Position numbers and translations under genes: made by a program. Below, in pieces: positions 7,757 to 26,576 of a stretch of 64,000 nt of DNA; position 1 is the stretch's first letter; every line of letters begins with the position of its first letter. This DNA comes from a plasmid. The stretch lies in sequence record NZ_CP102839.1. One strand, given 5' to 3'. Under the pieces are notes generated by a model, which did no database searches, was not told the origin of the DNA, and saw only the letters and a list, made by a program, of their open reading frames with translations.

Positions 7757-8731
7757 ATGCGTATTTTTGTTGACGACGGTTCCACCAATATCAAACTGGC
7801 ATGGGTGGCAGACGGTGAAGTGAAAACGTTGATCAGTCCGAACAGCTTTAAACCAGAATGGTCCATGACGCTGCTGACTGATTCAACGGGGCCGGCTTCC
7901 GCCAACTATGAAATTGACGGGGAAAAGTACAGCTTTGACCAGCTGAGCCCTGATGCCGTGCGCACCACGGAAACCCGCTATCAGTACAGTGATGTGAATG
8001 TAGTCGCTATCCACCACGCGCTGATGCAGTCCGGCATTGAACCGCAACCGGTTGACATTGTTGTGACGCTGCCGCTGGGCGAGTATCTGGATGAGAACGA
8101 TCAGCCTGATATGGCCAAAATCGAGCGGAAAAAAGCGAACGTGAAACGCGCGGTGACCGTTCAGGGGCATGAGAGCTTTACCGTGCGTAAAGTCAGTGTG
8201 CTGCCAGAGTCGGTCCCTGCAGGCTTCAGTGTGCTGAAGGATCTGGACGATCTGGACTCCCTGCTGATTGTCGATATCGGTGGAACGACGCTGGATATCG
8301 CGCACGTTCGCAGCAAAATGTCCGGGTTCACCAAGACGCATTGCGATCCTAAAACCGGCGTATCCATCATCACCGAGGCCGTAAAACACGCACTGGATAC
8401 CAGCGTGAGTACCCGTACCAGTTCATATTTTGCCGACCGTCTGATCCAGGCGCGAAATGACGATAGTTTTCTTTCCCGTTATCTTCAGAACGCTGACCAG
8501 CGGGCCCAGGTAATGAAGGTGCTGCACGAGCGTGAAAAAGCCCTGACGCACCGCGTCACCGATTCAGTTGGCCGCTTTGCCGGCTTCACACACGTCATGG
8601 TTGTCGGGGGCGGCGCCAGCCTGGTCGCCAGCGCAGTGAAGCAGGCCACGGGGGTGAGTGACGATCGCTTCTTCGTCAGCGATAACCCGCAGTTCGATCT
8701 GGTATTGGGCATGGTGGCAATGAAGGGCTGA
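7757..8731 (+). CDS. parM: ParM/StbA actin-like plasmid segregation ATPase
   Basis: MRIFVDDGSTNIKLAWVADGE...NSF...YSFD..SPDAV.TT...QYSDVNVVA.HHAL...IERKKANV...DIGGTTLDI...HVMVVGGGA closely parallels R1 ParM. The ORF-track start at 7607 is an upstream in-frame extension. The true start is ATG 7757. Confidence 0.9.
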   Translation: MRIFVDDGSTNIKLAWVADGEVKTLISPNSFKPEWSMTLLTDSTGPASANYEIDGEKYSFDQLSPDAVRTTETRYQYSDVNVVAIHHALMQSGIEPQPVDIVVTLPLGEYLDENDQPDMAKIERKKANVKRAVTVQGHESFTVRKVSVLPESVPAGFSVLKDLDDLDSLLIVDIGGTTLDIAHVRSKMSGFTKTHCDPKTGVSIITEAVKHALDTSVSTRTSSYFADRLIQARNDDSFLSRYLQNADQRAQVMKVLHEREKALTHRVTDSVGRFAGFTHVMVVGGGASLVASAVKQATGVSDDRFFVSDNPQFDLVLGMVAMKG

Positions 8732-8733
8732 GT

Positions 8734-9177
8734 ATGACTGATAACCGTAAGTGCTCGTTTTATATCTATCCGGATCGCAATGCGGCGGACCGGGTAGCCG
8801 ACGGATTTCTTGAGAAACTGCCTCAGAAAGAGCGCGGCCGCGCGATGCGCGCCATGATGCTCTGTGGTGCCGCGCTGATGAAACAGGACGAACGCCTGCC
8901 GTTCCTGATCGCTGAATTTCTGACGGAAGGCACCTCGATGCAGGATATTCAGCGGATCATCAGCAGTACGCTGCCGCAGCAGGATACAGGAGAGATGGCG
9001 CGTCTGTTTGAGGCGTTTCTGCAGGCCACCGGCGGCGCCAGTAATACGTTACCGCCGACAGGCGGATCAAGGCCGGAAAACAGCCCTGCCGTGACTCCCG
9101 AACCGGCGGCACCGGAGGATAAGAATCTGGAAGAAACCCGTAAGAACGTCCAGCATCTGTTCCCGGATGATGACTAA
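8734..9177 (+). CDS. parR: ParR/StbB centromere-binding adaptor
   Basis: Immediately follows parM. ...PQKERGRAMRAMMLCGAALMKQDERLPFLIAEFLTEGTSMQDIQRIISS parallels R1 ParR. Confidence 0.75.
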   Translation: MTDNRKCSFYIYPDRNAADRVADGFLEKLPQKERGRAMRAMMLCGAALMKQDERLPFLIAEFLTEGTSMQDIQRIISSTLPQQDTGEMARLFEAFLQATGGASNTLPPTGGSRPENSPAVTPEPAAPEDKNLEETRKNVQHLFPDDD

Positions 9178-11232: not shown

Positions 11233-11779
11233 CAGCGCAAAACACCGGCGCGAAAATGTGCTTCCTGAAGAGAAGCTGAAGGGCTTGTGCAACTGCGAAC
11301 CGCAGTACCGAACATCGGTACTGGAATCCAGTGAGGGGCTGAGCCGCTATCTGGCCGGGGCTGAAAACTGAGAAGGTGGCCGCCTCCTGCAGGGGCTGTA
11401 CGGGCATTAAACCTGTATTGCTCTGAAACGCGCTGTACGCCTCTCTGAGTGCTTCTTTAAAAAAGCTGCAACCTTCTCGCATTAATCGCTTTGACGTGTC
11501 CAGGCGCGCATTCAGCCCCATTCTGATTTGATTTCGGCCTGGTATTTGCCAGTGAGCCTACTTTAGATATCCGCAGAGCGTTTCCTTCCTGTTCATTTCA
11601 GGTCAGTTGCCGTCATTCCCTGGTGGCTCCACCGTTCCCTCAGCGGGTTCAGGCTATCGCGGGTGTCTGATGCCTGGACCTCTGCACCATGCCGGCAAAG
11701 TGCCGCCATCTGGATCTAAAAGCAATATTTACAGGGACAGGCGTCAAGGGAAAAACAAAGAAAAGTAATCATATAATGC

Positions 11780-11874
11780 TTGCTTTATATGGCTCATTAG
11801 ACGTATAATAATCACATCGAAAGGCAATGAGGCTTTTCGCGGTAGCGCCCCGACTGGCGCAGGAGTAAAAAATT
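11780..11874 (+). promoter_or_regulatory. leading-region promoter/leader cassette, copy 2
   Basis: TTGCTT at 11780, 18-nt spacer, TATAAT at 11804, hairpin (ggctcatt/aatgaggc), GTAGCGCCCCGACTGGCGCAGGAG, then ATG 11875. Confidence 0.7.
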
Positions 11875-12054
11875 ATGAGTAAAGCACTGACCCCTTCCCA
11901 GCTTAAAGCTGAACTGGACACGCAGAAAGATGCGCTGCTGAAGGCGTGCCTGTATGCCCTCAACGAAATCCCTAACCGCCGTTTAAGTGGTCCATATTCA
12001 TCCACGTATGCGCTGGCCGCGCAGGTCAGTAAACTGCTCCAGAGCTGCAAATAA
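11875..12054 (+). CDS. hypothetical 59-aa protein (below the ORF-track cutoff)
   Basis: MSKALTPSQLKAELDTQKDALLKACLYALNEIPNRRLSGPYSSTYALAAQVSKLLQSCK sits directly behind cassette copy 2. It is followed by a GC hairpin at 12063-12081. Confidence 0.45.
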   Translation: MSKALTPSQLKAELDTQKDALLKACLYALNEIPNRRLSGPYSSTYALAAQVSKLLQSCK

Positions 12055-12094
12055 TCATTGAAGGGCTGGCATTACCAGCCCTGTTCAACCCTTA

Positions 12095-12126
12095 CGGTAG
12101 CGCCCCGCATGGCGCAGGAGTCTGAA
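12095..12126 (+). promoter_or_regulatory. partial cassette, 3' leader block only
   Basis: cGGTAGCGCCCCGcaTGGCGCAGGAGtctgaa then ATG 12127. Confidence 0.5.
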
Positions 12127-12987
12127 ATGTCATCTAAAAATACTCTCCCGTCAGTCGATCTGATGTACTGCCAGCATGGCGGTGAAGTGATCCCGTCCAT
12201 TGCTATTGAGCGCATCATCTCGTTGCGGGATGAAGGTATCCGCGTCTATCTCGACGGCATAGACAAGCTGCGAAAAGCGCGCGATCTGATGCAGCAGGCC
12301 GGAGGCTGCCAGTACCTCTATGACTACGACAAAGCCGTAGAGAGCGCCATCAAATGGAGCGACACCACGCCAGATCAGGCCGAAACGGCTATTTCCCGCG
12401 TTATCGACGGAAAAATCTGGGATCGGCTGATGACGGAAACCGGTATGTATACGCTGATGAGCAACAAGCAACGTCAGGAATGGGATCGGCAGGTGGCAGG
12501 CAAAGAAATGCCGCCGATAACGCTGGATAACGTTATGAGTACGTTCCGGCACCTGAACGCAAGCAAGGCTGATACCTTCACGCAAGGGCTGATTGATATC
12601 TTTAAATCCCTGTCGTGGGATTATAAAACCAATAACCCCTGCATGTTTGGCAAGCGTATCATCATCGCGCCGTTGCTCGATGTCTGGCGCAGTGGCTGGG
12701 TGCGCTTCAGCTCAGACGGGCACACCAAAATTGACGATCTGGCGCGGCCGTTCTACGTGCTGGACGGGCGTAACGTGCCTGATTACCGCGTTTCTGACGG
12801 TGCCAGACTGGATGCCTTTTTCAGTGAAAACCAGTTCAACGGTAAGGTGTTCGAGTGTGATTACTTCAGCGTGCGATATTACAAAAAGGGCAGCGCCCAC
12901 ATTACGTTTAAACGCCCGGAGCTGGTTGAGAAGATCAATAATCTGGTTGCCAGTCACTATCCCGGAATGTTACCCCCTCGCGTGTAA
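12127..12987 (+). CDS. hypothetical 286-aa leading-region protein
   Basis: MSSKNTLPSVDLMYCQHGGEV... is fed by the leader block. It is the largest unknown ORF in the array and has no recognisable motif. The ORF-track start 12058 is an upstream extension. Confidence 0.6.
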   Translation: MSSKNTLPSVDLMYCQHGGEVIPSIAIERIISLRDEGIRVYLDGIDKLRKARDLMQQAGGCQYLYDYDKAVESAIKWSDTTPDQAETAISRVIDGKIWDRLMTETGMYTLMSNKQRQEWDRQVAGKEMPPITLDNVMSTFRHLNASKADTFTQGLIDIFKSLSWDYKTNNPCMFGKRIIIAPLLDVWRSGWVRFSSDGHTKIDDLARPFYVLDGRNVPDYRVSDGARLDAFFSENQFNGKVFECDYFSVRYYKKGSAHITFKRPELVEKINNLVASHYPGMLPPRV

Positions 12988-13176: not shown

Positions 13177-13515
13177 ATGGCTATTCAATCCCTTCAGTTC
13201 CGTAACGGCTCCGTTTCTCTTGGTGATGTTTTTGTTTCCAGCTGGGGTTATGAGCAGACAAATACCTGTTTTTATCAGGTGATCGCCCTGCGCGGTAAGA
13301 AAACCGCTGTACTGCGCCGCATCGCTGCGCAGCAGGTGAAAGCAGACAGTGCAATGTCTGGCGAGTTAAAGCCGGTATTGAACGACTTTAAAGGCGAACC
13401 CGTGACCCGTCGCATCTGTGAAAACCATGAGCATCCGTCTGTCAGCATTGACGAGTACGAACAGGCTTATAAGACCGATCCTAACGAAAGCCATTTTTAC
13501 AGCACCTGGGGCTGA
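13177..13515 (+). CDS. hypothetical 112-aa protein
   Basis: MAIQSLQFRNGSVSLGDVFV... sits behind cassette copy 3. Confidence 0.55.
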   Translation: MAIQSLQFRNGSVSLGDVFVSSWGYEQTNTCFYQVIALRGKKTAVLRRIAAQQVKADSAMSGELKPVLNDFKGEPVTRRICENHEHPSVSIDEYEQAYKTDPNESHFYSTWG

Positions 13516-13612: not shown

Positions 13613-13843
13613 ATGGCGGAAACAGTTTATCAGGCGCGGAGGCGTTTTTACCTTCTCCGTTTTCGGCGCAGTCGTAACCCGGACACACTGGAAAAAATGT
13701 ACGAATCCATGCGGGATCGTGGACAGGTGCCGGAGGAGGACACCGCGGCTTTTGAGGCTGCCGCCGACCATCGCCGCGCAGAGCTGGCATCGGGATGCAT
13801 CTGGGATAAGATCCCGCCGCATGTCTGGCAGTATGTAAAATAA
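13613..13843 (+). CDS. hypothetical 76-aa protein
   Basis: MAETVYQARRRFYLLRF... has no cassette upstream and only a weak RBS. It is followed by a rho-independent terminator. Confidence 0.4.
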   Translation: MAETVYQARRRFYLLRFRRSRNPDTLEKMYESMRDRGQVPEEDTAAFEAAADHRRAELASGCIWDKIPPHVWQYVK

Positions 13844-18286: not shown

Positions 18287-20215
18287 ATGAACGCCATCAT
18301 TCCACCCAAACGTCGCGACAGAAAGTCCAGCTTTGTTCAGCTGGTCGCGTATGTTTCCGTGCGTGATGATGTTCCGTTAAAAGACGAGCTGAAAGAAGAC
18401 GAGCGTTTCCAGCGTCCGTCGCGTTCCCGCCAGGCCATTTTTGATCGCCTTGTTGACTACATGAACCGTAGTGAAGGAACGATCATTGAACAGATTTCTG
18501 ATATGACTCCTGAAGGTGATATACGCTGTTCTGTTGACGGTGTTATCTGCCAGCATAACCTGATGTCAGTTGAAACAGCTGCAATGGAGATGAACAGCAT
18601 TGCCATGCAGAACACGCATGTTAAGGACGCGGTTTATCACTATATCCTGAGCTGGCAGGAAGATGAAAATCCATCTGACGATCAGGTTTTTGACAGTGTT
18701 AAACACTCACTCAAACGCCTGGGTATGGAAGAGCACCAGTACGTAGCGGCGATTCACCGTGACACGGATAATCTGCATGTTCATATTGCTGCTAACCGCG
18801 TTCACCCGGTTTCTTATCGCGCGGCTAATGTCTGGAATGACGCGGATAAACTTCAGCGTACCTGCCGGGAACTGGAACTGAAGCACGGATTTAAAGTGGA
18901 TAACGGAAGCTGGGTTCGTGATGCTGACAACAACATTGTGCGGGCCAGAAAAGGGTATCGCAATGCACCACGTTCAGCGCGACAGCTTGAACACTTCTCT
19001 GATAAAGAGTCCCTTCATCATTTTGCAGTCCAGCATGTTCGTAAGCCTGTTAATGCCATGTTCCGTGAGAAGAACGCGTCATGGGAAAAACTGCATCAGG
19101 TCATGAATGATGCTGGTTTAATGTTAGAGACTTCCGGCAAAGGGCTGATCGTGCGTGATGTGTGTGGCGACGAGAAACTGGCCGTTAAATCATCGCGGGT
19201 TCACCCTGGTATGACGCTTTCCCGTCTTGAGCCTGCGCTGGGAACCTTTGTTCCCTCACCACGTTCTGCGGAAATGGTTAAGCAAAGTGTTCAGACGTCT
19301 TACAGTGACAAACTGCATGTCCGCGATCGTGGTGCCCGTGCGGAGCGCCGGCAGGCACGCGCTGACGCCCGTATCGATTTGCGCGAACGCTACGAGAAGT
19401 ACCGCAACGCCTGGAAAAAACCTGACCTTCATGCCGCTGAACGATTCCGGGCTGTGTCCGCTGCATTTAAAGAACAGAAGACCCATATCCGGGATAACGA
19501 GAAAGACGCGCATATGCGTAAGCTCATGTACCACATCGTGGAGTTTGAACGTGAGAAGTCGATGGCAGCGCTGCGTATTGCACTGAAGGCAGAACGCCAG
19601 AAGTTGTATGACGAGGGCATGATGCGGCCGCTGACCTACCGTGCCTGGACCGAACAACAGGCGCTTCACGGCGATCAGGCTGCGCTCAGTCAGTTGCGTG
19701 GCTGGTCTTACCGACAGAATCGTAAAAACCGGACACCGCAGGCCTCTGACAATATTATTTACTGTGCACCTGCAGATGACACCTCGTTGCTCAAAGCAGA
19801 TGGTTACGAGGCCCGCCTGCATCGTGACGGCGCGGTTGTCTATTCCCGCCAGGGGCAGGATGCCATCATTGATCGGGGAGACCGCGTTGAAGTCATTAAT
19901 CCGTATGATGACGGTGACCTCAACACGCGCATTGCCGTTGACATGGTGGCCTGGAAATCAGGCGAGCGTGTCGAATTCAGCCGGGATGGCAGTTTCGCTT
20001 ATGCTGCCGGCGATGCGGTGGCTGCACACAACCTGCATCATCGTGACAGTATCATCGTGCCGAGTGACCGGGAACAATACGACTATACGCGGGAGAAGTT
20101 TAACCAGCTGAAAGGCCGGTATACGGACAGTGAACGGGAAGCACTTCGTCAGCAATATGACGATCGTTATTACGACGATGTTCGCCACAATGACGACAGT
20201 AGTTATAAGCCATAA
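18287..20215 (+). CDS. nikB: MOBP-family relaxase (NikB-like)
   Basis: ...AIHRDTDNLHVHIAANRVHP... is the 3-His HxDxDNxHxH relaxase motif. It sits directly after nikA. 642 aa, shorter than R64 NikB at roughly 900 aa. Confidence 0.8.
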   Translation: MNAIIPPKRRDRKSSFVQLVAYVSVRDDVPLKDELKEDERFQRPSRSRQAIFDRLVDYMNRSEGTIIEQISDMTPEGDIRCSVDGVICQHNLMSVETAAMEMNSIAMQNTHVKDAVYHYILSWQEDENPSDDQVFDSVKHSLKRLGMEEHQYVAAIHRDTDNLHVHIAANRVHPVSYRAANVWNDADKLQRTCRELELKHGFKVDNGSWVRDADNNIVRARKGYRNAPRSARQLEHFSDKESLHHFAVQHVRKPVNAMFREKNASWEKLHQVMNDAGLMLETSGKGLIVRDVCGDEKLAVKSSRVHPGMTLSRLEPALGTFVPSPRSAEMVKQSVQTSYSDKLHVRDRGARAERRQARADARIDLRERYEKYRNAWKKPDLHAAERFRAVSAAFKEQKTHIRDNEKDAHMRKLMYHIVEFEREKSMAALRIALKAERQKLYDEGMMRPLTYRAWTEQQALHGDQAALSQLRGWSYRQNRKNRTPQASDNIIYCAPADDTSLLKADGYEARLHRDGAVVYSRQGQDAIIDRGDRVEVINPYDDGDLNTRIAVDMVAWKSGERVEFSRDGSFAYAAGDAVAAHNLHHRDSIIVPSDREQYDYTREKFNQLKGRYTDSEREALRQQYDDRYYDDVRHNDDSSYKP

Positions 20216-20496
20216 AAACCGCTTCGGTGCAGCATTAAAACGACAGAGCATCTGAGGGGATGTCAGGGTATTTGACTTTGCTGTCGCAGGCGGATCTGAA
20301 GGGAATTTCCCCCTGTCCCCACAAGCGTACGCTGATGGCCAGACAGGGAGTGCCAGGAAAAGTTATAATTGTCGCTGAAAGTAATGACCATCCGCCATTC
20401 TTTATGGGGGCGGGTAGGATCGTTGCCTTACACTAAACTGCCCCCCCCAGGAAAATCATTTACGGATACAATGCTGGCCTTGATTTTGTGTCCGAA

Positions 20497-22191
20497 CTAT
20501 TTATCTGAATATATTTTCTCGATACTTTTTCGTATATCATTAAGCCTGACTGGTTTTGTAAGAAGCTCAACCCCATCAACTGGACTCTCGCTGGAGTAAG
20601 CGCTGATGAAAATAAATGGCGTTTGTGTGTTGGGACCTGAGCCTGTTTTTACTGCCATATAAAGCTCGTCGCCATTCATGATTGGCATTTGCAGGTCACT
20701 AAGCACAAGATCGTATGGTTTACGTCGCAACTTCTCCAGCGCCCTTTCCGGAGATGAGGTATATTCTACTTGAAATATACCCTGTAAAATTGATGCGAGC
20801 GACTCACAAACCAACTCATCATCATCAATTATCAATATGCTGAGGTCGTTAGCCGTAAAACCTTCATTTCGAATAACATCGGAAATAGCCAATTCTTCTT
20901 TAGTCGATTTTTTTACAGGCAGCGTTATTCTGAATAGACTTCCAAGCCCTAACTCACTTTTGACACTTATACGTCCATTCATTGTTTTGACAACCCCCAT
21001 AACAATGGCAAGCCCCATACCAAATCCGGGGACTTTTACTCCATCAGCTACTCGTATGAAAGGGAGGAATATCGATTTTAGTTTATCCTTTGGGATGCCT
21101 CTTCCTGTATCTTCAACCTCTATGACAAGTGTTCTATCACCTTCTAAAAAAGCATTTATAGTTATGTGACCTTTGTCGGTGTACTTTATGGCATTAGTTA
21201 CTAAGTTTTCTGTGATCTGTGCAATCCTGAAAGGGTCGCTTATTATATGACTATCGCTAATATTGCCTATTCTAATATCAATAGAATGTTTATTGGAAAT
21301 TGATTCACATTCGCTAACTGTATCTTTTATAAGTTTGGCAAGATTGAATGATATGTTGTTTACCACTATATTTCCATTGTCAACCTTAGCGAACTCTGCC
21401 AGGTCTTTCATCTGGTTTTCCATCCTCTTCGCGGCATTCTCCAGTCTTTCAATATGTTTTGAATCCAATTCTGAGTTTTTTAAGGATATTATTTCAATTG
21501 AAGATGTGATTGCCTGTAGAGACGTTTTTAATTCATGGCCTAATGCACCCAAAAAAGCATTTTTATTATTAAATGCAGCTTTTTCAGCTTCTAATAATTT
21601 ATTGGTTTTATATAGCTGAAAAGCTACTATGATAAACATAGCAAAGATTAAAACTGTTACGATTGCCAGCAAAATAATAAGGCTTTGCCTTTTTTCTTTA
21701 AAATCCTCAAGGGCTTTTGTTCTTTGATTGACCTCCGCATGGTCTGCTATATTGTTCAATGATTTTGAGTCTGGCTCGATTTTATTGACTAACTCAATAA
21801 CTTTTTCAATGTTTGGGTTAGGGGTGTTTATATACGAGTCTACCGCTTTTATTTTGTAATAAATAGAATCAATAATCTGCTTGTACCCCTCTTGATTATA
21901 TAAAGGCTCTGTCGACTCACTCCTTGCTCTAATAACATGAATGCGGGAATAAAGGATATCTAGCTTTAATCGGATTTTATCCATATCTTTGTCTTCGCTC
22001 TTAACAAGAGAGTAAAACTCAGACAATTGGATTGAAAACTTTGCAATAGCCCATGCATAGTTTTCCTGAGTGCCGCTTATGGCATAAAAAGACTTGTCAG
22101 ACAACATAGAATCGTATCTAACTATTGTCGATACAACAAAAGTTAATGTAACTGCCATTCCAGACAAAAGAATAAGGAATTTCTTTTTCAT
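20497..22191 (-). CDS. hybrid sensor histidine kinase (2 TM + periplasmic sensor, HisKA-HATPase-REC)
   Basis: H-box LGALGHELKTSLQAI, N-box LVTNAIKYT, G-boxes DTGRGIP and GFGMGLA, and a C-terminal receiver ILIIDDDELV...LVLSDLQMP. Two hydrophobic segments flank a roughly 150-aa periplasmic region. Local GC is about 30%. Confidence 0.8.
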   Translation of the reverse strand: MKKKFLILLSGMAVTLTFVVSTIVRYDSMLSDKSFYAISGTQENYAWAIAKFSIQLSEFYSLVKSEDKDMDKIRLKLDILYSRIHVIRARSESTEPLYNQEGYKQIIDSIYYKIKAVDSYINTPNPNIEKVIELVNKIEPDSKSLNNIADHAEVNQRTKALEDFKEKRQSLIILLAIVTVLIFAMFIIVAFQLYKTNKLLEAEKAAFNNKNAFLGALGHELKTSLQAITSSIEIISLKNSELDSKHIERLENAAKRMENQMKDLAEFAKVDNGNIVVNNISFNLAKLIKDTVSECESISNKHSIDIRIGNISDSHIISDPFRIAQITENLVTNAIKYTDKGHITINAFLEGDRTLVIEVEDTGRGIPKDKLKSIFLPFIRVADGVKVPGFGMGLAIVMGVVKTMNGRISVKSELGLGSLFRITLPVKKSTKEELAISDVIRNEGFTANDLSILIIDDDELVCESLASILQGIFQVEYTSSPERALEKLRRKPYDLVLSDLQMPIMNGDELYMAVKTGSGPNTQTPFIFISAYSSESPVDGVELLTKPVRLNDIRKSIEKIYSDK

Positions 22192-22694
22192 TTTAGCACC
22201 GTAATTTTGTTAACCTGCCAAATGAATCTTGATAAATACAATGGGTTGTTTATCTCACTAGCGTGCTCATCGAGTGGGTATATAACGAAGTAAGGACCAA
22301 AATTTCTTACTTTAAGTTTTTTACCATTCATTTTGTAAGCAAAAATGATGTTGTAATTTTCAACATCTGAGACAGGGATATCTATTGAGTAATCATTTAG
22401 TGCGATCATTCTTAATGTTCTCCCTTGAGCACCGACTAACTTTAATATGTCTTTAACTCTAACACCCTCAAAATCTACTTTAGTTTTTGGTTTCGTCCAC
22501 GGTGTCGTTGTCTTTATGTGTGCCATTGGCATTTTAATAAAGTCATTGAATGTGAGTGTGTATCCAATGTCATTGTTTTTATGGCTAATCATTCCGTCAA
22601 TATTTATATCTTCAGTCGCAGCCATTGTTTGAGAGGTCACAAACAAAATCGTGGCGAAAAATGAAAGTTGAAACTTATGCATAAAATTCCTCAA
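22188..22694 (-). CDS. secreted periplasmic protein of unknown function
   Basis: MRNFMHKFQLSFFATILFVTSQTMAATED is a signal peptide. The stop overlaps the kinase start (ATGA), so the two are translationally coupled. Confidence 0.5.
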   Translation of the reverse strand: MRNFMHKFQLSFFATILFVTSQTMAATEDINIDGMISHKNNDIGYTLTFNDFIKMPMAHIKTTTPWTKPKTKVDFEGVRVKDILKLVGAQGRTLRMIALNDYSIDIPVSDVENYNIIFAYKMNGKKLKVRNFGPYFVIYPLDEHASEINNPLYLSRFIWQVNKITVLK

Positions 22695-23661
22695 ATTCTT
22701 TATTTAATACTTCCAGCATATAATCATCTTCGCTGCAATGAACACCTGCGGTATGGTTATTTCCGATATAAATTGATTCACATTTAGTATAGTAAAGACT
22801 ACGCAACTCAGGTTTGACGGTGGTAAATATACACCTTGTGGGTATATTAAAGCCTGCTCCTAAATGAAGCGCAGAAGAATCGCAGGTATACAAAAAACAT
22901 GCATGTTTTATGATTCCTGCGAAAGATAACGTATCACTGGATATGTTGCTTATATTAAAGAAATTAGGGTGATCTACGTCATTGAAACCTAATACTTTAA
23001 CGCCGAACTCGTGGCTCAATTCTTCAACAATTTCAACATGAAATCGTGAGGGGATGCTTCTTATCTTTGTACTCGCGTTAGGACAAAACAGTATATACTC
23101 CCCCAGATCAAAATCTGGTACATCTGTGTTTAAAAGCCAGGAGTTATTTTTGATGTTATCATTAATGCTTTTGGGGTTGATTCCAAGATTAGTTAGAAAA
23201 AAATCATGCATCTCGATGCTATCAAAATCTTCCCAATAAAGCTGATTTCCCATATCTATATTAACGTCTGTATGGTTGATTTTAGAGATGTCGAAAGGTA
23301 AGTATAATAACTTATCAATAATGCCTGATGCCATGTGATAAATTTGTTCGACATAGTCCTGGCAATGCTCCGGCCTAATCAATGTTATATGAATATCCGG
23401 ATTTATAGATTTAATTGCATGTAGAGCAGAGATTCCAATGATTGAATCTCCAAGGGTTACCCCTAATCCATTAATTATGGTGACTTTTTTTATTTTTTTA
23501 TAATCAACCTTAACCTTGTTTAATGCATTGTTATATACTGTTTTATATGCCAATGGTGCAAGATCACCAACAGGCTTTTTTTTATTCACTCCATAGGGAG
23601 ACACGATGTATCTCCCATTCAACAGAAGACTACCTGTATATTCTAATAAGCATCTGTTCAT
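22675..23661 (-). CDS. glycosyltransferase family 9 (heptosyltransferase-like)
   Basis: ...IINGLGVTLGDSIIGISALHAIK... and ...CDSSALHLGAGFNIPT... resemble the GT9 ADP-heptose:LPS heptosyltransferase signatures. Confidence 0.6.
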   Translation of the reverse strand: MNRCLLEYTGSLLLNGRYIVSPYGVNKKKPVGDLAPLAYKTVYNNALNKVKVDYKKIKKVTIINGLGVTLGDSIIGISALHAIKSINPDIHITLIRPEHCQDYVEQIYHMASGIIDKLLYLPFDISKINHTDVNIDMGNQLYWEDFDSIEMHDFFLTNLGINPKSINDNIKNNSWLLNTDVPDFDLGEYILFCPNASTKIRSIPSRFHVEIVEELSHEFGVKVLGFNDVDHPNFFNISNISSDTLSFAGIIKHACFLYTCDSSALHLGAGFNIPTRCIFTTVKPELRSLYYTKCESIYIGNNHTAGVHCSEDDYMLEVLNKEFEEFYA

Positions 23662-23663
23662 GG

Positions 23664-24509
23664 CTATTTGTTTGGAAAAAACTTATCTACATTTGATTTT
23701 ATAACGAAAGATTTTATAGGCTTTTCATAGGGGCCAATAATATCAAGTTCGTTAATAGCTCTTGAGATCTCGCTATCAACTGCCCCGGATAACTGTCCTG
23801 TTAAAACCATAACCATCGCATGCTTATTTCCTGATGATCTGATTTTTTTAATTGTATTGAAAACGGTTTTATTATCTACAATCCAATCTAATATGTATGC
23901 ATCGAACGGGGTTTGTTCGATAGCATCATCTAATTCATCTATACTATAGAATTCCTTTATTGTGTATCTATCCCCTTCAAGAAGAGATGATAGGCTCTGA
24001 ACGATATTTTTATCGTCATCAAGCACAGCAATTCTATGCTTTTCTTTGTCTATTTTTTTGGGAATAATTTCGATTAAATCAATATTCATTTTTGATTCAA
24101 ATAGCACATCATCACGGATACTGCTTGTTTTAACAACATGCCACACATCATTTATTTTTAATGCAGAGTAATTTGTCGGTTCCGATGGGTTTTCAGAAAT
24201 ATAGATCTTACAGGGCTCATTCAATTCCCCATCGCTCCAAACTGCCTCATGAACTTCAACATCCTTATTAGATTGTTCCTGATAGTAAAGTCGAAAAAAA
24301 TCATCCAGCCTCATACCAACGGAATGCACAACTTCAAGCAGCTGCTGAACTCGCCATTCACTTCCTCCTGCCAATTTTTTAGTGGCCGCAGTAGAAGACA
24401 TCTCAAGGACATGCCCCACATGCATTGAATGTTTCTTCTCCGGTACGCCACCACTCGTTAGAACTTTTGCAACCAGATCTCCGACCCAGTTTGTGTTGTT
24501 ATTCATCAC
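23664..24509 (-). CDS. atypical response regulator: N-terminal HTH + C-terminal receiver domain
   Basis: N-terminus ...HVGHVLEMSSTAATKKLAGGSEWRVQQL looks like an HTH. C-terminus RIAVLDDDKNIV...AYILDW...MVLTG looks like a REC domain. The domain order is inverted relative to classical OmpR/NarL-type regulators. Confidence 0.55.
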   Translation of the reverse strand: MMNNNTNWVGDLVAKVLTSGGVPEKKHSMHVGHVLEMSSTAATKKLAGGSEWRVQQLLEVVHSVGMRLDDFFRLYYQEQSNKDVEVHEAVWSDGELNEPCKIYISENPSEPTNYSALKINDVWHVVKTSSIRDDVLFESKMNIDLIEIIPKKIDKEKHRIAVLDDDKNIVQSLSSLLEGDRYTIKEFYSIDELDDAIEQTPFDAYILDWIVDNKTVFNTIKKIRSSGNKHAMVMVLTGQLSGAVDSEISRAINELDIIGPYEKPIKSFVIKSNVDKFFPNK

Positions 24510-25115
24510 TTTTCACCTCTTGTTTGGAGCGTCACGCATAAAGTAACTACAGGTATAAGGCAGAGGCATTTTATCAGTAAAAACAATCTTTTCCGATAAC
24601 TTTACTCCTAAAGGTTTTAACCTGAGGTTGTGAATTAGCTGTTTATCTCAACCACAGGTTGACATGTACAGATGGTTCTATAACATATGCGTTAGAGTTA
24701 CACATATGCACAACCTGGGGTTGGTTTGTTGCTGTGGCTATAAAACAGCGCCTGGGAAGGGGTGAGCTCGAAGTTCAAAAAGGGATGTAAGTCAGTAGCT
24801 ATTACGCCGTGGCTTGCCCATCACTTTTTTGTATACGCAACAATGTTGGTTTTTTTAAATTGCTCTTTAACAATGTGTAAAATCGAATTGATACAGAGTT
24901 CCTATTTAGACCCCTACGCAAAAATGCGACGTATCAAGCGGGACGATCTGTCGCTTGAGAAGGTTACCTCTGCGAAAGCAGACGTGGAACGGGCAACACT
25001 GATACGGTAAACGAAGTATCTAGCGTAATTATAAAGTATTGATTAAAGCCCACTGAAGAGTGGGCTTTGCTTAATCACTTTTATATGCCTTCCGGCAAAA
25101 GCAAGAGGAGAAATA

Positions 25116-25343
25116 ATGGCAATTAATGCGCCGCCTGAAAAAAGAAAAAACCGTACATCAGATAATGTCATTTACATTGGTGCTGAACGTAAAGATAGAA
25201 TAGATCAAATGACTATTGAGATTTCTTACAGTACCAAGAAGAAAGTCTCTACAGCTCGTTTTTTCCAATTTTTAATTGATCATTATGGAGAAAATGCAAA
25301 GAATGAATTTATTGAAGCGATAATAAAGTCGGATGATTCCTGA
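25116..25343 (+). CDS. hypothetical 75-aa protein (AT-rich)
   Basis: Strong RBS AGGAGAAATAATG. MAINAPPEKRKNRTSDNVIYI... A small DNA-binding or RHH-like role is possible. Confidence 0.4.
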   Translation: MAINAPPEKRKNRTSDNVIYIGAERKDRIDQMTIEISYSTKKKVSTARFFQFLIDHYGENAKNEFIEAIIKSDDS

Positions 25344-25456
25344 CCTTATCTAAGTTTCCGTCTAGCACCTTTCCTGACGTATCTATGTATATTACTTTGT
25401 TTTCTATCAAGTTAAGTGTTTCTGTCTAATACCCCCGTTTCATCGGAGCCATCATT

Positions 25457-26062
25457 ATGAAACATCTACTTCCAGGGCTGCTTATCCCCGCAGTTCTGGC
25501 TGGCTGTGTCTCACACTCAGCCAGCACTGACGCCCCTGCCAGCATATACATCGATGGTCTAATCGCAGACAGCGCTCAGACTATCAGCCAGGCCCAGACA
25601 GGCCTTCACCAGACAGGACCGAATCCGGCCCGACCGGTATCCCCTACTGCACTGATTAAACCGTTACCACCTTCAACGCCTGTCAGACCAGGAGTGATCG
25701 AACCTTACCGAAGCCCGTCCCTTCCGGTATCGCAAAACGTTCAGCTGCCGGCACTGAGCCATGTTTCCTACAACGGGCGCCCGGGACCTTTATCATTCCC
25801 GCAACGCGCTGGTTACGCCCGGAACATTACCGTTCAGGATGCCGCACAACGCATCATTCCTGTCGGCTGGTCAGTCAACTGGTCCCCGGGTCTGGAAAAA
25901 GTGCGCCGGCAACGGGTGAACCTGTCTCTTAACGATCAGTGGCCGCGCGTACTCAATAATCTGGTCTCGGCGAAGTCGCTCTACGCGACGGTTGAATGGG
26001 GACAGTCACGAATCACGATAACCTCATACAGCCCCCGACCTCGTCTCTTCAGCCATCAGTAA
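25457..26062 (+). CDS. lipoprotein, first gene of the type IV secretion block
   Basis: MKHLLPGLLIPAVLAGCVSH gives a signal peptide plus lipobox. Confidence 0.5.
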   Translation: MKHLLPGLLIPAVLAGCVSHSASTDAPASIYIDGLIADSAQTISQAQTGLHQTGPNPARPVSPTALIKPLPPSTPVRPGVIEPYRSPSLPVSQNVQLPALSHVSYNGRPGPLSFPQRAGYARNITVQDAAQRIIPVGWSVNWSPGLEKVRRQRVNLSLNDQWPRVLNNLVSAKSLYATVEWGQSRITITSYSPRPRLFSHQ

Positions 26063-26074
26063 CGGGAGGGGTCC

Positions 26075-26554
26075 ATGAAACTGCCGGCAATTTTTCTTTG
26101 CTCCCTGCTTTTTCTGCCCCAGGCGCAGGCCTACTGTTTTAACTATGCCGCATCGAAGTACAACCAGAACCCGCTCGTCGTTGAATCCATCGCAATCTGG
26201 GAAAGCAGCCTCCGCCCTGACGCTGTCGGCCGTAACTACGATAAAGCCGGCAGGCTGCTCAGCTCTGATTATTGCCTCATGCAAATCAATACGGCGAACG
26301 TCCGGGCGCTGGTATCGATGGGTGTCATTTCTTCTGCTGACGATCTGTTAAAAGACCCGTGCTTATGTGTTCAGGCCGGCGCCTGGGTGCTTGCAAAACA
26401 CCTGAAAAAATGTGGTAACACCTGGCGTTGTCTCGGCTCCTATAACGCCGGTTTCTCAGATGACCCGAAACAGGAAATAAAACGTCAGAACTACGCCGCA
26501 GAAATCCGCTCCATCTACGAACGCCTGTACGCCAGGCAGCACCGTGCCAGTTAA
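26075..26554 (+). CDS. lytic transglycosylase (SLT domain)
   Basis: ...IAIWESSLRPDAV...SDYCLMQINTANV... shows the SLT catalytic ES and LMQIN signatures. Has a signal peptide. Confidence 0.8.
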   Translation: MKLPAIFLCSLLFLPQAQAYCFNYAASKYNQNPLVVESIAIWESSLRPDAVGRNYDKAGRLLSSDYCLMQINTANVRALVSMGVISSADDLLKDPCLCVQAGAWVLAKHLKKCGNTWRCLGSYNAGFSDDPKQEIKRQNYAAEIRSIYERLYARQHRAS

Positions 26555-26576
26555 ACCGCACAGACTGAGGTTCCCC

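Follow-up and report, generated by a model that had tools for sequence, protein, structure and literature searches.

A 64-kb stretch of NZ_CP102839.1, a Klebsiella resistance plasmid, was analysed (the window, by which this whole stretch is meant), and an AT-rich island of four genes, called here the cassette, was examined within it. With a probability of about 60%, we read this cassette as a probably pterin-responsive two-component system of the PruR-DTB/Air type, with an integral enzyme of a GT9 clade of glycosyltransferases, that acts as a regulatory module of conjugative transfer; it would then probably decide when the resistance plasmid spreads. A role in transfer regulation is suggested by the recurrence of the cassette beside transfer genes and by its replacement of traJ and of a NusG-type gene in regulator slots. 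A sensory function is suggested by the PruR-like periplasmic partner, which keeps the PW motif and the residues N, Y and W. Further support comes from the Air system, in which an OxMoco protein is needed for signalling from a kinase to a BetR regulator. The elements in question are the following (aa, amino acids).

20497..22191, minus strand: hybrid sensor histidine kinase, 564 aa (Pfam HisKA, HATPase_c, Response_reg)
22188..22694, minus strand: secreted PruR-family protein with predicted pterin binding (SUOX fold, cofactor-less), 168 aa (phmmer against PDB)
22675..23661, minus strand: putative cytoplasmic GT-B glycosyltransferase (GT) of a divergent GT9 clade, 328 aa (family alignment, AlphaFold2 (AF2), Foldseek)
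23664..24509, minus strand: BetR-family response regulator, 281 aa (Pfam BetR, E=2e-11, residues 10-140; Response_reg, residues 160-240)
24510..25115, no strand assigned: control region separating the regulator gene from the divergent transfer genes

The four minus-strand open reading frames (ORFs) overlap by 4 nt and 20 nt and leave one gap of 2 nt, a packing that is operon-like. A composition scan of the window showed that the GC content, 0.55-0.57 at 19.2-20.2 kb, falls to 0.32-0.37 in the interval 21.0-24.2 kb, amounts to 0.40-0.43 over the intergenic stretch at 24.2-25.2 kb and to 0.35 at 25.0-25.4 kb, and regains 0.54-0.59 from 25.4 kb onward. On average, the four-gene block has a GC content of 0.36, against 0.543 for the remaining window. 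In rounded terms, 20.3-25.4 kb stands at 32-37% GC between flanks of 54-60%. The low-GC zone also holds the 606-bp intergenic region and a plus-strand 75-aa ORF (25116-25343). An earlier description made from the letters of the window (the sequence-only reading) had proposed four co-directional, coupled genes for a kinase, a periplasmic partner, a GT9-like enzyme and a regulator with a helix-turn-helix (HTH) and a receiver, lying between the relaxase gene (18287-20215) and the type IV secretion system (T4SS) genes (from 25457). The tight packing and the placement were borne out, and the anatomy proved correct according to Pfam, fold and PruR similarity. The abrupt change in composition was likewise sharp when computed; the island value of about 30% was slightly too low, and the backbone, taken as about 56% GC, was measured at 0.543 outside the block, with flanks of 0.54-0.59.

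The 168-aa periplasmic partner has a partial Oxidored_molyb match in Pfam. When compared with the PDB by phmmer, it matched K. pneumoniae PruR (7rkb, E=5.6e-28, 43% identity over 128 aa), A. tumefaciens PruR (7kos, E=4.6e-24, also 7kou), 7kp2 (E=1.2e-23) and 7kom (E=9e-21). PruR is a secreted, cofactor-less SUOX-fold protein in which a pterin is held between a Tyr and a Trp with a hydrogen bond from an Asn (N102, Y104 and W160 in A. tumefaciens), and in which the Trp of a PW motif takes the place of the molybdenum-ligating Cys; PruR acts as a control on the periplasmic domain of the protein whose gene adjoins its own (PMC11194511). In the cassette protein, P65-W66 (TTTPW motif) stands where this Cys would be, and residues N100 and Y102 (ALNDY) and W159 (IWQV) align with the pocket of K. 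pneumoniae PruR. Across 9 cassettes, the W of the PW motif is invariant and the P variable; the pocket Asn, Tyr and Trp are kept across cassettes, with the sole exception of an N to D change in one Paraburkholderia copy. A Cys past the signal peptide is absent from the PruR-like protein in 9/9 cassettes, and a hydrophobic, Sec-type signal-like N-terminal segment, devoid of a twin-arginine motif, is present in all nine and predicts secretion. By this similarity, the periplasmic partner is assigned to the PruR family, a relationship newly recognised here; that a pterin is its ligand can be considered an even bet.

Hydropathy of the kinase revealed hydrophobic segments at about residues 5-25 and 176-200, which flank a periplasmic domain of about 150 aa. 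The H-box histidine (H219), the N, G1 and G2 boxes and a C-terminal receiver (D456-458, D499, K546) are present, and the protein ends 7 residues past the receiver domain. The best NCBIfam similarity of the kinase core was to TorS, far below the cut-off. In two plasmids, the kinase is labelled merely as an 'ATP-binding protein', at 99.1% identity, and possibly represents a truncated natural variant there. The regulator is composed of an N-terminal five-helix HTH, a middle beta domain and a C-terminal receiver in which D164/D165, the phospho-acceptor D208, T237 and K263 are invariant in the family alignment; in its AF2 model (pLDDT 86), the receiver superposes on those of Spo0F, CheY and PhoP. 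All phosphotransfer residues are intact in the kinase (H219, D499) and in the regulator. The sequence-only reading had correctly placed the HTH at the N-terminus and the receiver at the C-terminus, but the description of this order as inverted and unusual does not hold, as it is the normal architecture of the BetR family, found in 36/36 relatives.

For the 328-aa protein, no Pfam match was obtained even at E<=10 (PF01075 included) and no NCBIfam match, and its nature was derived only from the family alignment, AF2 and Foldseek. In a 31-member family alignment, the motifs G67-VTLGD72-S and Y258-TCD261SSALH266 are invariant, and both align exactly to WaaF (1psw) when the family profile is compared with the PDB. 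The AF2 model has a pLDDT of 93.9, and the top 30 PDB matches given by Foldseek are WaaC, WaaF, TibC and Veillonella GT9. The protein has an N-terminal extension of about 58 aa and belongs to a small clade (1326 representatives at E<=1e-3 among 1.84 billion). Its relatives are called GT9 by NCBI, and some of them, at 39-51% identity, match PF01075, as do more distant relatives fused to GT2 or TPR. As judged from the model and the alignment, it is plausible that this protein is an active GT-B enzyme of a divergent GT9 clade.

Three gene orders were seen for the cassette (regulator-GT-partner-kinase, partner-kinase-GT and GT-partner-kinase), and in each of them the GT is encoded within the sensor operon, which suggests a component of the sensor unit rather than a regulated target. 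From these arrangements, the GT appears to be an integral and obligatory member of the cassette. Solo GT genes, devoid of a cassette, occur in many Burkholderiaceae, Cedecea and Enterobacter; at 58 such loci, no consistent neighbour was found (LysR in 15, polysaccharide genes in about 10), with spurious high-GC ORFs adding noise.

The island is 100% identical in dozens of Klebsiella plasmids of 60-130 kb, which MOB-suite typed as IncFII replicon, MOBP and MPF_I; one of them, p675920-2, is a named beta member of IncFII-pKF727591. A member of this beta subgroup was conjugated into E. coli in a study that treats the island region as backbone and makes no mention of a kinase or a two-component system (PMC6735626). 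The transfer region is labelled there as an 'F-type' T4SS; its genes are I-type (DotD/TraH, TraI, TraJ, IcmT, DotA/TraY, ExcA). By tblastn, a homologue of the GT was detected in 306 PLSDB plasmids, 234 of which are typed conjugative. A megablast search of the island against complete E. coli genomes gave no match.

A search for syntenic islands, as had been proposed in the sequence-only reading, revealed the same four genes beside transfer genes on unrelated elements. The carriers include a Serratia ficaria contig from an I-type plasmid, with the layout of the window; a VirB-type plasmid that encodes an IncFII RepA and is met very often in Klebsiella and in gut metagenomes, where a TraY-like gene adjoins the cassette; pCVM19633_110-type VirB plasmids of Salmonella, E. 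coli, Shigella, Citrobacter and Edwardsiella; an IncX-like VirB plasmid, where the cassette coexists with an adjacent NusG-family gene; F-type plasmids of Klebsiella and Serratia marcescens; and Paraburkholderia VirB plasmids, where the order is PruR-kinase-GT and the regulator gene lies on the opposite strand, divergent from virB2. Transfer genes were the sole recurrent neighbour, namely the T4SS operon on the plasmids examined and the relaxase and integrase genes on an integrative and conjugative element (ICE). The regulator gene and the T4SS operon are divergently oriented on all plasmids examined.

In two cases, the position is that of another regulator. On F-type plasmids (three loci), the cassette lies exactly between traM and traY, which is the traJ position, and the F-type Klebsiella and Serratia plasmids that carry it are devoid of traJ. 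In pB-3002cz, of the alpha sister subgroup, whose T4SS proteins share 94-96% identity with those of the window, the operon is headed by a NusG-family gene and then by a homologue of the 75-aa ORF, with no cassette in the slot; a NusG homologue was sought in the window and none was found. The suggestion in the sequence-only reading that the island could regulate transfer is thus supported by comparative position and by slot replacement.

The TraY-like gene of the VirB-type plasmid (8580-8783 of its locus) shows 65% identity over 49 aa to the F-type TraY (8643-8891 of its locus), and both genes directly adjoin the cassette. This likeness across VirB- and F-type plasmids suggests that the cassette and TraY moved jointly between T4SS types.

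Regarding the age of the island, the proteins of enterobacterial cassettes from different backbones are 36-62% identical to each other and 25-42% identical to those of the Paraburkholderia copy. Between S. ficaria and the window, the cassette proteins are 59-79% identical and the adjacent T4SS proteins 65-89%, a divergence of the cassette similar to, or slightly above, that of its neighbours. Both copies have a GC content of 0.33-0.38 beside transfer genes of 0.50-0.58; more generally, the enterobacterial cassettes all have 33-37% GC regardless of backbone, and the Paraburkholderia cassette has 56%. The shared divergence and the stable low GC suggest that the island is old and that its AT-richness has been maintained, rather than resulting from recent acquisition. 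Such maintenance is consistent with silencing by H-NS/Hha. An Hha/YmoA-family gene is found at 13613-13843 of the same plasmid, and its product, together with host H-NS, could silence the AT-rich cassette and its control region.

The footprint of the control region was obtained by aligning that of the window with S. ficaria. The following features were recorded.

About 24569-24606: conserved block, about 60-95 nt upstream of the regulator start (S. ficaria alignment)
24618-24630, 24649-24661 and 24711-24723: palindromes CAAC(C)-N3-(G)GTTG, candidate operators
TTGACA at 24659 and TAACAT ending at 24686, plus strand: sigma-70-like promoter (promoter scan), flanked by the palindromes
24693-25115, plus strand: leader of about 420 nt, from the predicted promoter to the 75-aa ORF
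25038-25075: terminator-like hairpin, with a stem conserved and a loop variable in S. ficaria
25116..25343, plus strand: low-GC 75-aa ORF heading the transfer-gene block, conserved (70%) in S. ficaria

All three palindrome matches of the 64-kb window cluster inside 105 bp. Their arms are conserved in S. ficaria and their spacers vary, and the promoter hexamers are conserved too; a similar palindrome is found in the equivalent region of the Serratia ICE and of the IncX-like plasmid. The palindromes are candidate operators of the BetR-family regulator. An operator common to all cassettes was considered and dropped, as the sole, loosely shared element is an A/T-rich block located about 60-100 nt upstream of where the regulator gene starts.

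Within the leader, a block at about 24860-24960 is nearly identical in S. ficaria, and it is non-coding, as indels in S. ficaria break an 82-aa ORF. The leader fold gave z=-2.4, and an Rfam scan of 20-26 kb at E<=0.1 returned zero matches; the leader could be an attenuator or a cis-acting RNA. The 75-aa ORF has no Pfam, NCBIfam or PADLOC match. It resembles a 67-aa ORF of pB-3002cz (13260-13463 of its locus; 38% over 58 aa, E=3e-9), which sits directly downstream of the NusG-family gene; this suggests that the ORF is a leader gene conserved in the I-type T4SS operon under either regulator. The idea that it encodes a TraY-like ribbon-helix-helix protein was dropped, since BLASTP against TraY of three loci (VirB-type with IncFII Rep, and F-type) revealed no similarity.

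The regulation of transfer by the cassette would proceed as follows. First, the secreted PruR-type protein would bind a periplasmic pterin, the ligand predicted from the observed homology and pocket. Then, it would modulate the periplasmic domain of the adjacent hybrid kinase, as suggested by the PruR-DcpA precedent and by the overlap of the two genes. Phosphoryl groups would subsequently reach D208 of the BetR-family regulator, for which the catalytic residues are present and no histidine phosphotransfer (HPt) domain is encoded. Position, palindrome clustering and conservation suggest that the regulator would finally bind the palindromes around the divergent promoter at 24.62-24.72 kb, and so control transcription of the leader, of the 75-aa ORF, of the T4SS block of about 26 kb and probably of its own operon. 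The I-type T4SS block is the presumed regulated target, and the AT-rich module would probably also be subject to silencing by H-NS and by the Hha-family protein encoded by the plasmid.

Several observations weigh against this reading. The case for transfer regulation is one of position and replacement. On Serratia ICEs, the cassette lies beside a TraI_2 relaxase and an integrase with no T4SS neighbours, and a chromosomal cassette of Serratia fonticola and S. aquatilis has no T4SS neighbours either (TetR, UPF0261 and Fic are nearby), which suggests that the cassette is not intrinsically a transfer regulator. An HPt domain was sought with Pfam and NCBIfam in all four proteins and none was found, so that the canonical His-Asp-His-Asp relay is incomplete. 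The kinase has W47-X7-Q55 instead of WX7E, and a Glu at +8 occurs in 0/10 cassettes. The palindrome was not found in the control regions of more distant cassettes, and it could bind another protein. Finally, the model gives the GT no explained need. As T4SS-free chromosomal copies and solo GTs exist, the cassette appears, by comparison of its loci, to be a general signalling unit recruited by conjugative elements and not a T4SS component. On the ICE, the genes from which the regulator gene diverges are a short ORF of 125 aa and those of the relaxase and the integrase.

The closest known relatives of the sensor half are those of the PruR-DTB class, which was defined bioinformatically by Greenwich et al. 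2024 (PMC11194511) and is reviewed in PMC13259868. In this class, the partner is a TorS/BaeS-like kinase, often encoded beside a regulator gene, and no function has been assigned; one stated hallmark is a WX7E motif in the sensor periplasmic domain (PMC11194511). The cassette shares with it a secreted SUOX-fold protein lacking the molybdenum cofactor Cys, with a PW motif and an N/Y/W pocket. It also shares a pruR gene immediately upstream of the gene for a sensor with two transmembrane segments (here with the 4-nt overlap), a sensor periplasmic domain of about 150 aa (about 140-190 in the class) followed by a TorS-like kinase core and a receiver, and an adjacent response-regulator gene. In contrast, the cassette kinases have an invariant G-x-QENY instead of WX7E; this block is the conserved one, and one of the 10 cassette kinases has a Phe for the motif Trp. 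The cassette further differs by its integral GT9-clade fourth gene and by its location on plasmids and ICEs, where it heads transfer operons.

The Air system of Chromobacterium violaceum is composed of AirM (OxMoco), AirS (kinase) and AirR (BetR-type), and AirM is required for signalling (PMC7240160). Compared by domain description, the same three signalling parts are found in the cassette (Pfam Oxidored_molyb, HisKA/HATPase_c and BetR with Response_reg), and the Paraburkholderia and S. fonticola versions share the convergent arrangement of airMS and airR. However, Air is a chromosomal three-gene cluster without a glycosyltransferase, and its output is the control of violacein and quorum sensing. 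PruR-DcpA of A. tumefaciens also relies on a homologous pterin receptor (7kos, E=4.6e-24) acting on a periplasmic domain encoded by a neighbour, but its output is of the GGDEF-EAL type (cyclic di-GMP, biofilm), whereas a phosphorelay to a DNA-binding regulator is predicted for the cassette.

Among regulators of transfer, TraJ of F-like plasmids is comparable to the cassette by the traM-traY slot, and the NusG/RfaH-type activators by the position heading the I-type T4SS operon, which a NusG-family gene fills in the sister subgroup. TraB of R64 is a NusG/RfaH-type activator of an I-type transfer operon. PrfaH is described as such an activator for the IncX transfer operon (PMC11880322). Neither TraJ nor these activators have any sequence relationship to the cassette, and they are single cytoplasmic activators, unlike a four-gene unit with a periplasmic input. 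As for the GT, it shares with the GT9 heptosyltransferases WaaC, WaaF and TibC a GT-B fold, an N-terminal LGD and a C-terminal D-S-x-x-x-H. It differs from them by its low similarity (11-14% identity, TM-scores of 0.40-0.51), by the lack of a PF01075 match, by its additional N-terminal segment of about 58 aa and its small separate clade, and by its location in a signalling operon instead of a waa cluster or the vicinity of an autotransporter.

The cassette might alternatively be accessory cargo, namely an Air-like two-component system, responsive to pterin or redox, which would act on genes of the host chromosome (biofilm, secondary metabolism, stress) and lie close to transfer genes because their junction tolerates insertions. 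Air, the one characterised relative, indeed controls chromosomal genes (violacein, quorum sensing), PruR-DcpA controls biofilm formation, and a four-gene chromosomal version without T4SS neighbours exists; the foreign-looking composition of the island and the IS/Rpn insertions at the relaxase-kinase junction of some plasmids (IS, insertion sequence) point in the same direction. Nevertheless, the same orientation relative to the T4SS operon is found in at least 6 plasmid backbones from two proteobacterial classes, and at such low protein identity (25-60%) chance insertion is hard to credit. In addition, the cassette stands precisely where known or likely master regulators are found, its divergence parallels that of the backbone, to which it is also assigned in PMC6735626, and no mobile-element boundaries are present, as direct or inverted terminal repeats, IS and integrase were looked for at the island edges and none was seen. 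For these reasons, we consider cargo unlikely. A chromosomal operon merely hitchhiking on the plasmid, the case that the sequence-only reading had retained against its own proposal, is not what was found: chromosomal relatives exist, but the plasmid and ICE copies occupy regulator slots.

A second explanation, developed from the sequence-only reading, is that an envelope cue leads the GT9 enzyme to add a sugar to the lipopolysaccharide (LPS) inner core or to another envelope glycan, with altered phage or mating-receptor properties, the T4SS being close because the function concerns the donor surface or self-exclusion. The GT-B fold is nearest to that of the LPS heptosyltransferases WaaC and WaaF, both GT9 motifs are invariant across the family and the gene is obligatory in the cassette; moreover, wider relatives match PF01075 and are fused to GT2 domains, and about 10 solo Burkholderiaceae homologues lie near polysaccharide genes (ManC-like, initiating-transferase-like). 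On the other hand, the GT is located inside the sensor operon in all three gene orders and is not separately regulated, and it is too distant from canonical GT9 for a PF01075 match. The protein heptosyltransferase TibC is structurally as close as WaaC, and the fold thus does not point to LPS as the acceptor. No single receptor is common to the transfer systems (I-, F-, T- and G-type) that the cassette accompanies, and the replacement in the traJ and NusG slots is left unexplained. The proposal that LPS-core remodelling is the output of the system is not supported, given this operon position, the transfer genes as recurrent neighbours and T4SS types that differ in pili and receptors; remodelling of surface glycans in its wider form seems quite unlikely.

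A more speculative role, which we regard as improbable, is that the GT makes the signal itself. Tetrahydromonapterin is excreted by enterobacteria. The enzyme would glycosylate such a host pterin, and the resulting cassette-specific glycoside would be sensed by the cognate PruR-like receptor. This would constitute a plasmid-encoded cell-cell circuit with a new class of autoinducer, by which donors gauge the density of carriers and tune the T4SS. The idea is tenable because in the cassette the GT is always co-transcribed with the receptor and the kinase, because the receptor (36-60% identity) and the enzyme (37-62%) show parallel divergence from backbone to backbone, and because cyanobacteria have pterin glycosides and a pterin glucosyltransferase. 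Density-type control of transfer has precedents in PhrI of ICEBs1 and in TraR-AHL (acyl-homoserine lactone) of the Ti plasmid. If true, the transfer of plasmids would be tuned by a new autoinducer class.

Finally, an anti-phage defence, exclusion or addiction function of the island is very improbable: AT-rich plasmid islands often carry defence genes and a surface-modifying enzyme could block phage adsorption, but none of the five island proteins matched a PADLOC defence model, the domain content is that of signal transduction, and an IncI-type ExcA is already present in the trb region (related record).

To our knowledge, it is largely unknown what sets off the conjugation of Enterobacterales resistance plasmids beyond laboratory conditions, and for most plasmid families we know only of cytoplasmic host factors as inputs. 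If the regulation of transfer by the cassette is correct, the plasmid owns a periplasmic sensor with a candidate ligand class, the excreted pterins. At least 306 sequenced plasmids would be concerned, including the IncFII-pKF727591 beta group, to which the window belongs, F-type plasmids from Klebsiella and Serratia, and VirB-type ones from Salmonella, E. coli and Shigella. Moreover, the PruR-DTB class, which is large and has no assigned function, would thereby gain a first output, and there would be a reason to view drugs of the folate/pterin pathway (sulfonamides, trimethoprim) as modulators of plasmid spread.

In the literature, no publication describing an association of the cassette with conjugation was found, nor anything linking PruR-DTB or Air to conjugation or to a GT9 gene. 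The PruR-DTB papers mention no plasmids, conjugation or glycosyltransferases in this context (PMC11194511, PMC13259868), and the cassette is not mentioned in 'Five shades of F'. PMC12196164, PMC9241548 and PMC8016931 were considered as possible reports of the cassette and set aside, as they concern other genes. The statement in the sequence-only reading that this is not a described system is thus about right, even if its sensor half is a case of the PruR-DTB class (PMC11194511) and is similar to Air (PMC7240160). The PruR identity of the partner, the recurrence beside transfer genes, the replacement in the traJ and NusG slots and the age of the island are newly found here.

The island is bounded by the following features.

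18287..20215, plus strand: MOBP relaxase (NikB/TraI-like), 642 aa, left boundary of the island (Pfam Relaxase and TraI_middle; pL22-4 annotation)
25457..29024, plus strand: start of the I-type (Dot/Icm-like) T4SS block, which extends to about 51.7 kb (ORFs, pL22-4 annotation)

The junction between the relaxase and kinase genes is split in some related plasmids by an ISNCY/Rpn-family transposase (11667-12608 of the locus). In S. fonticola, an IS605 OrfB/TnpB-like gene (Cas12f-like TNB domain; 7781-8911 of the locus) is found 1 kb upstream of the chromosomal cassette. The relaxase at 18287-20215 has a weak LPD7 match in Pfam (E=8e-4, below the cut-off), and a 1137-aa ORF within the T4SS block (29305-32718) is named an LPD7-domain protein in the pL22-4 record. 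The block comprises, in series, genes for a 201-aa lipoprotein, a lytic transglycosylase, DotD/TraH, TraI and the TraJ ATPase. The first of these, at 25457-26062, is a proline-rich lipoprotein-like ORF with a LAGC lipobox that heads the high-GC T4SS block; it is missing from the PLSDB gene table of pL22-4, a plasmid identical to that of the window, yet it is 65% conserved in S. ficaria.

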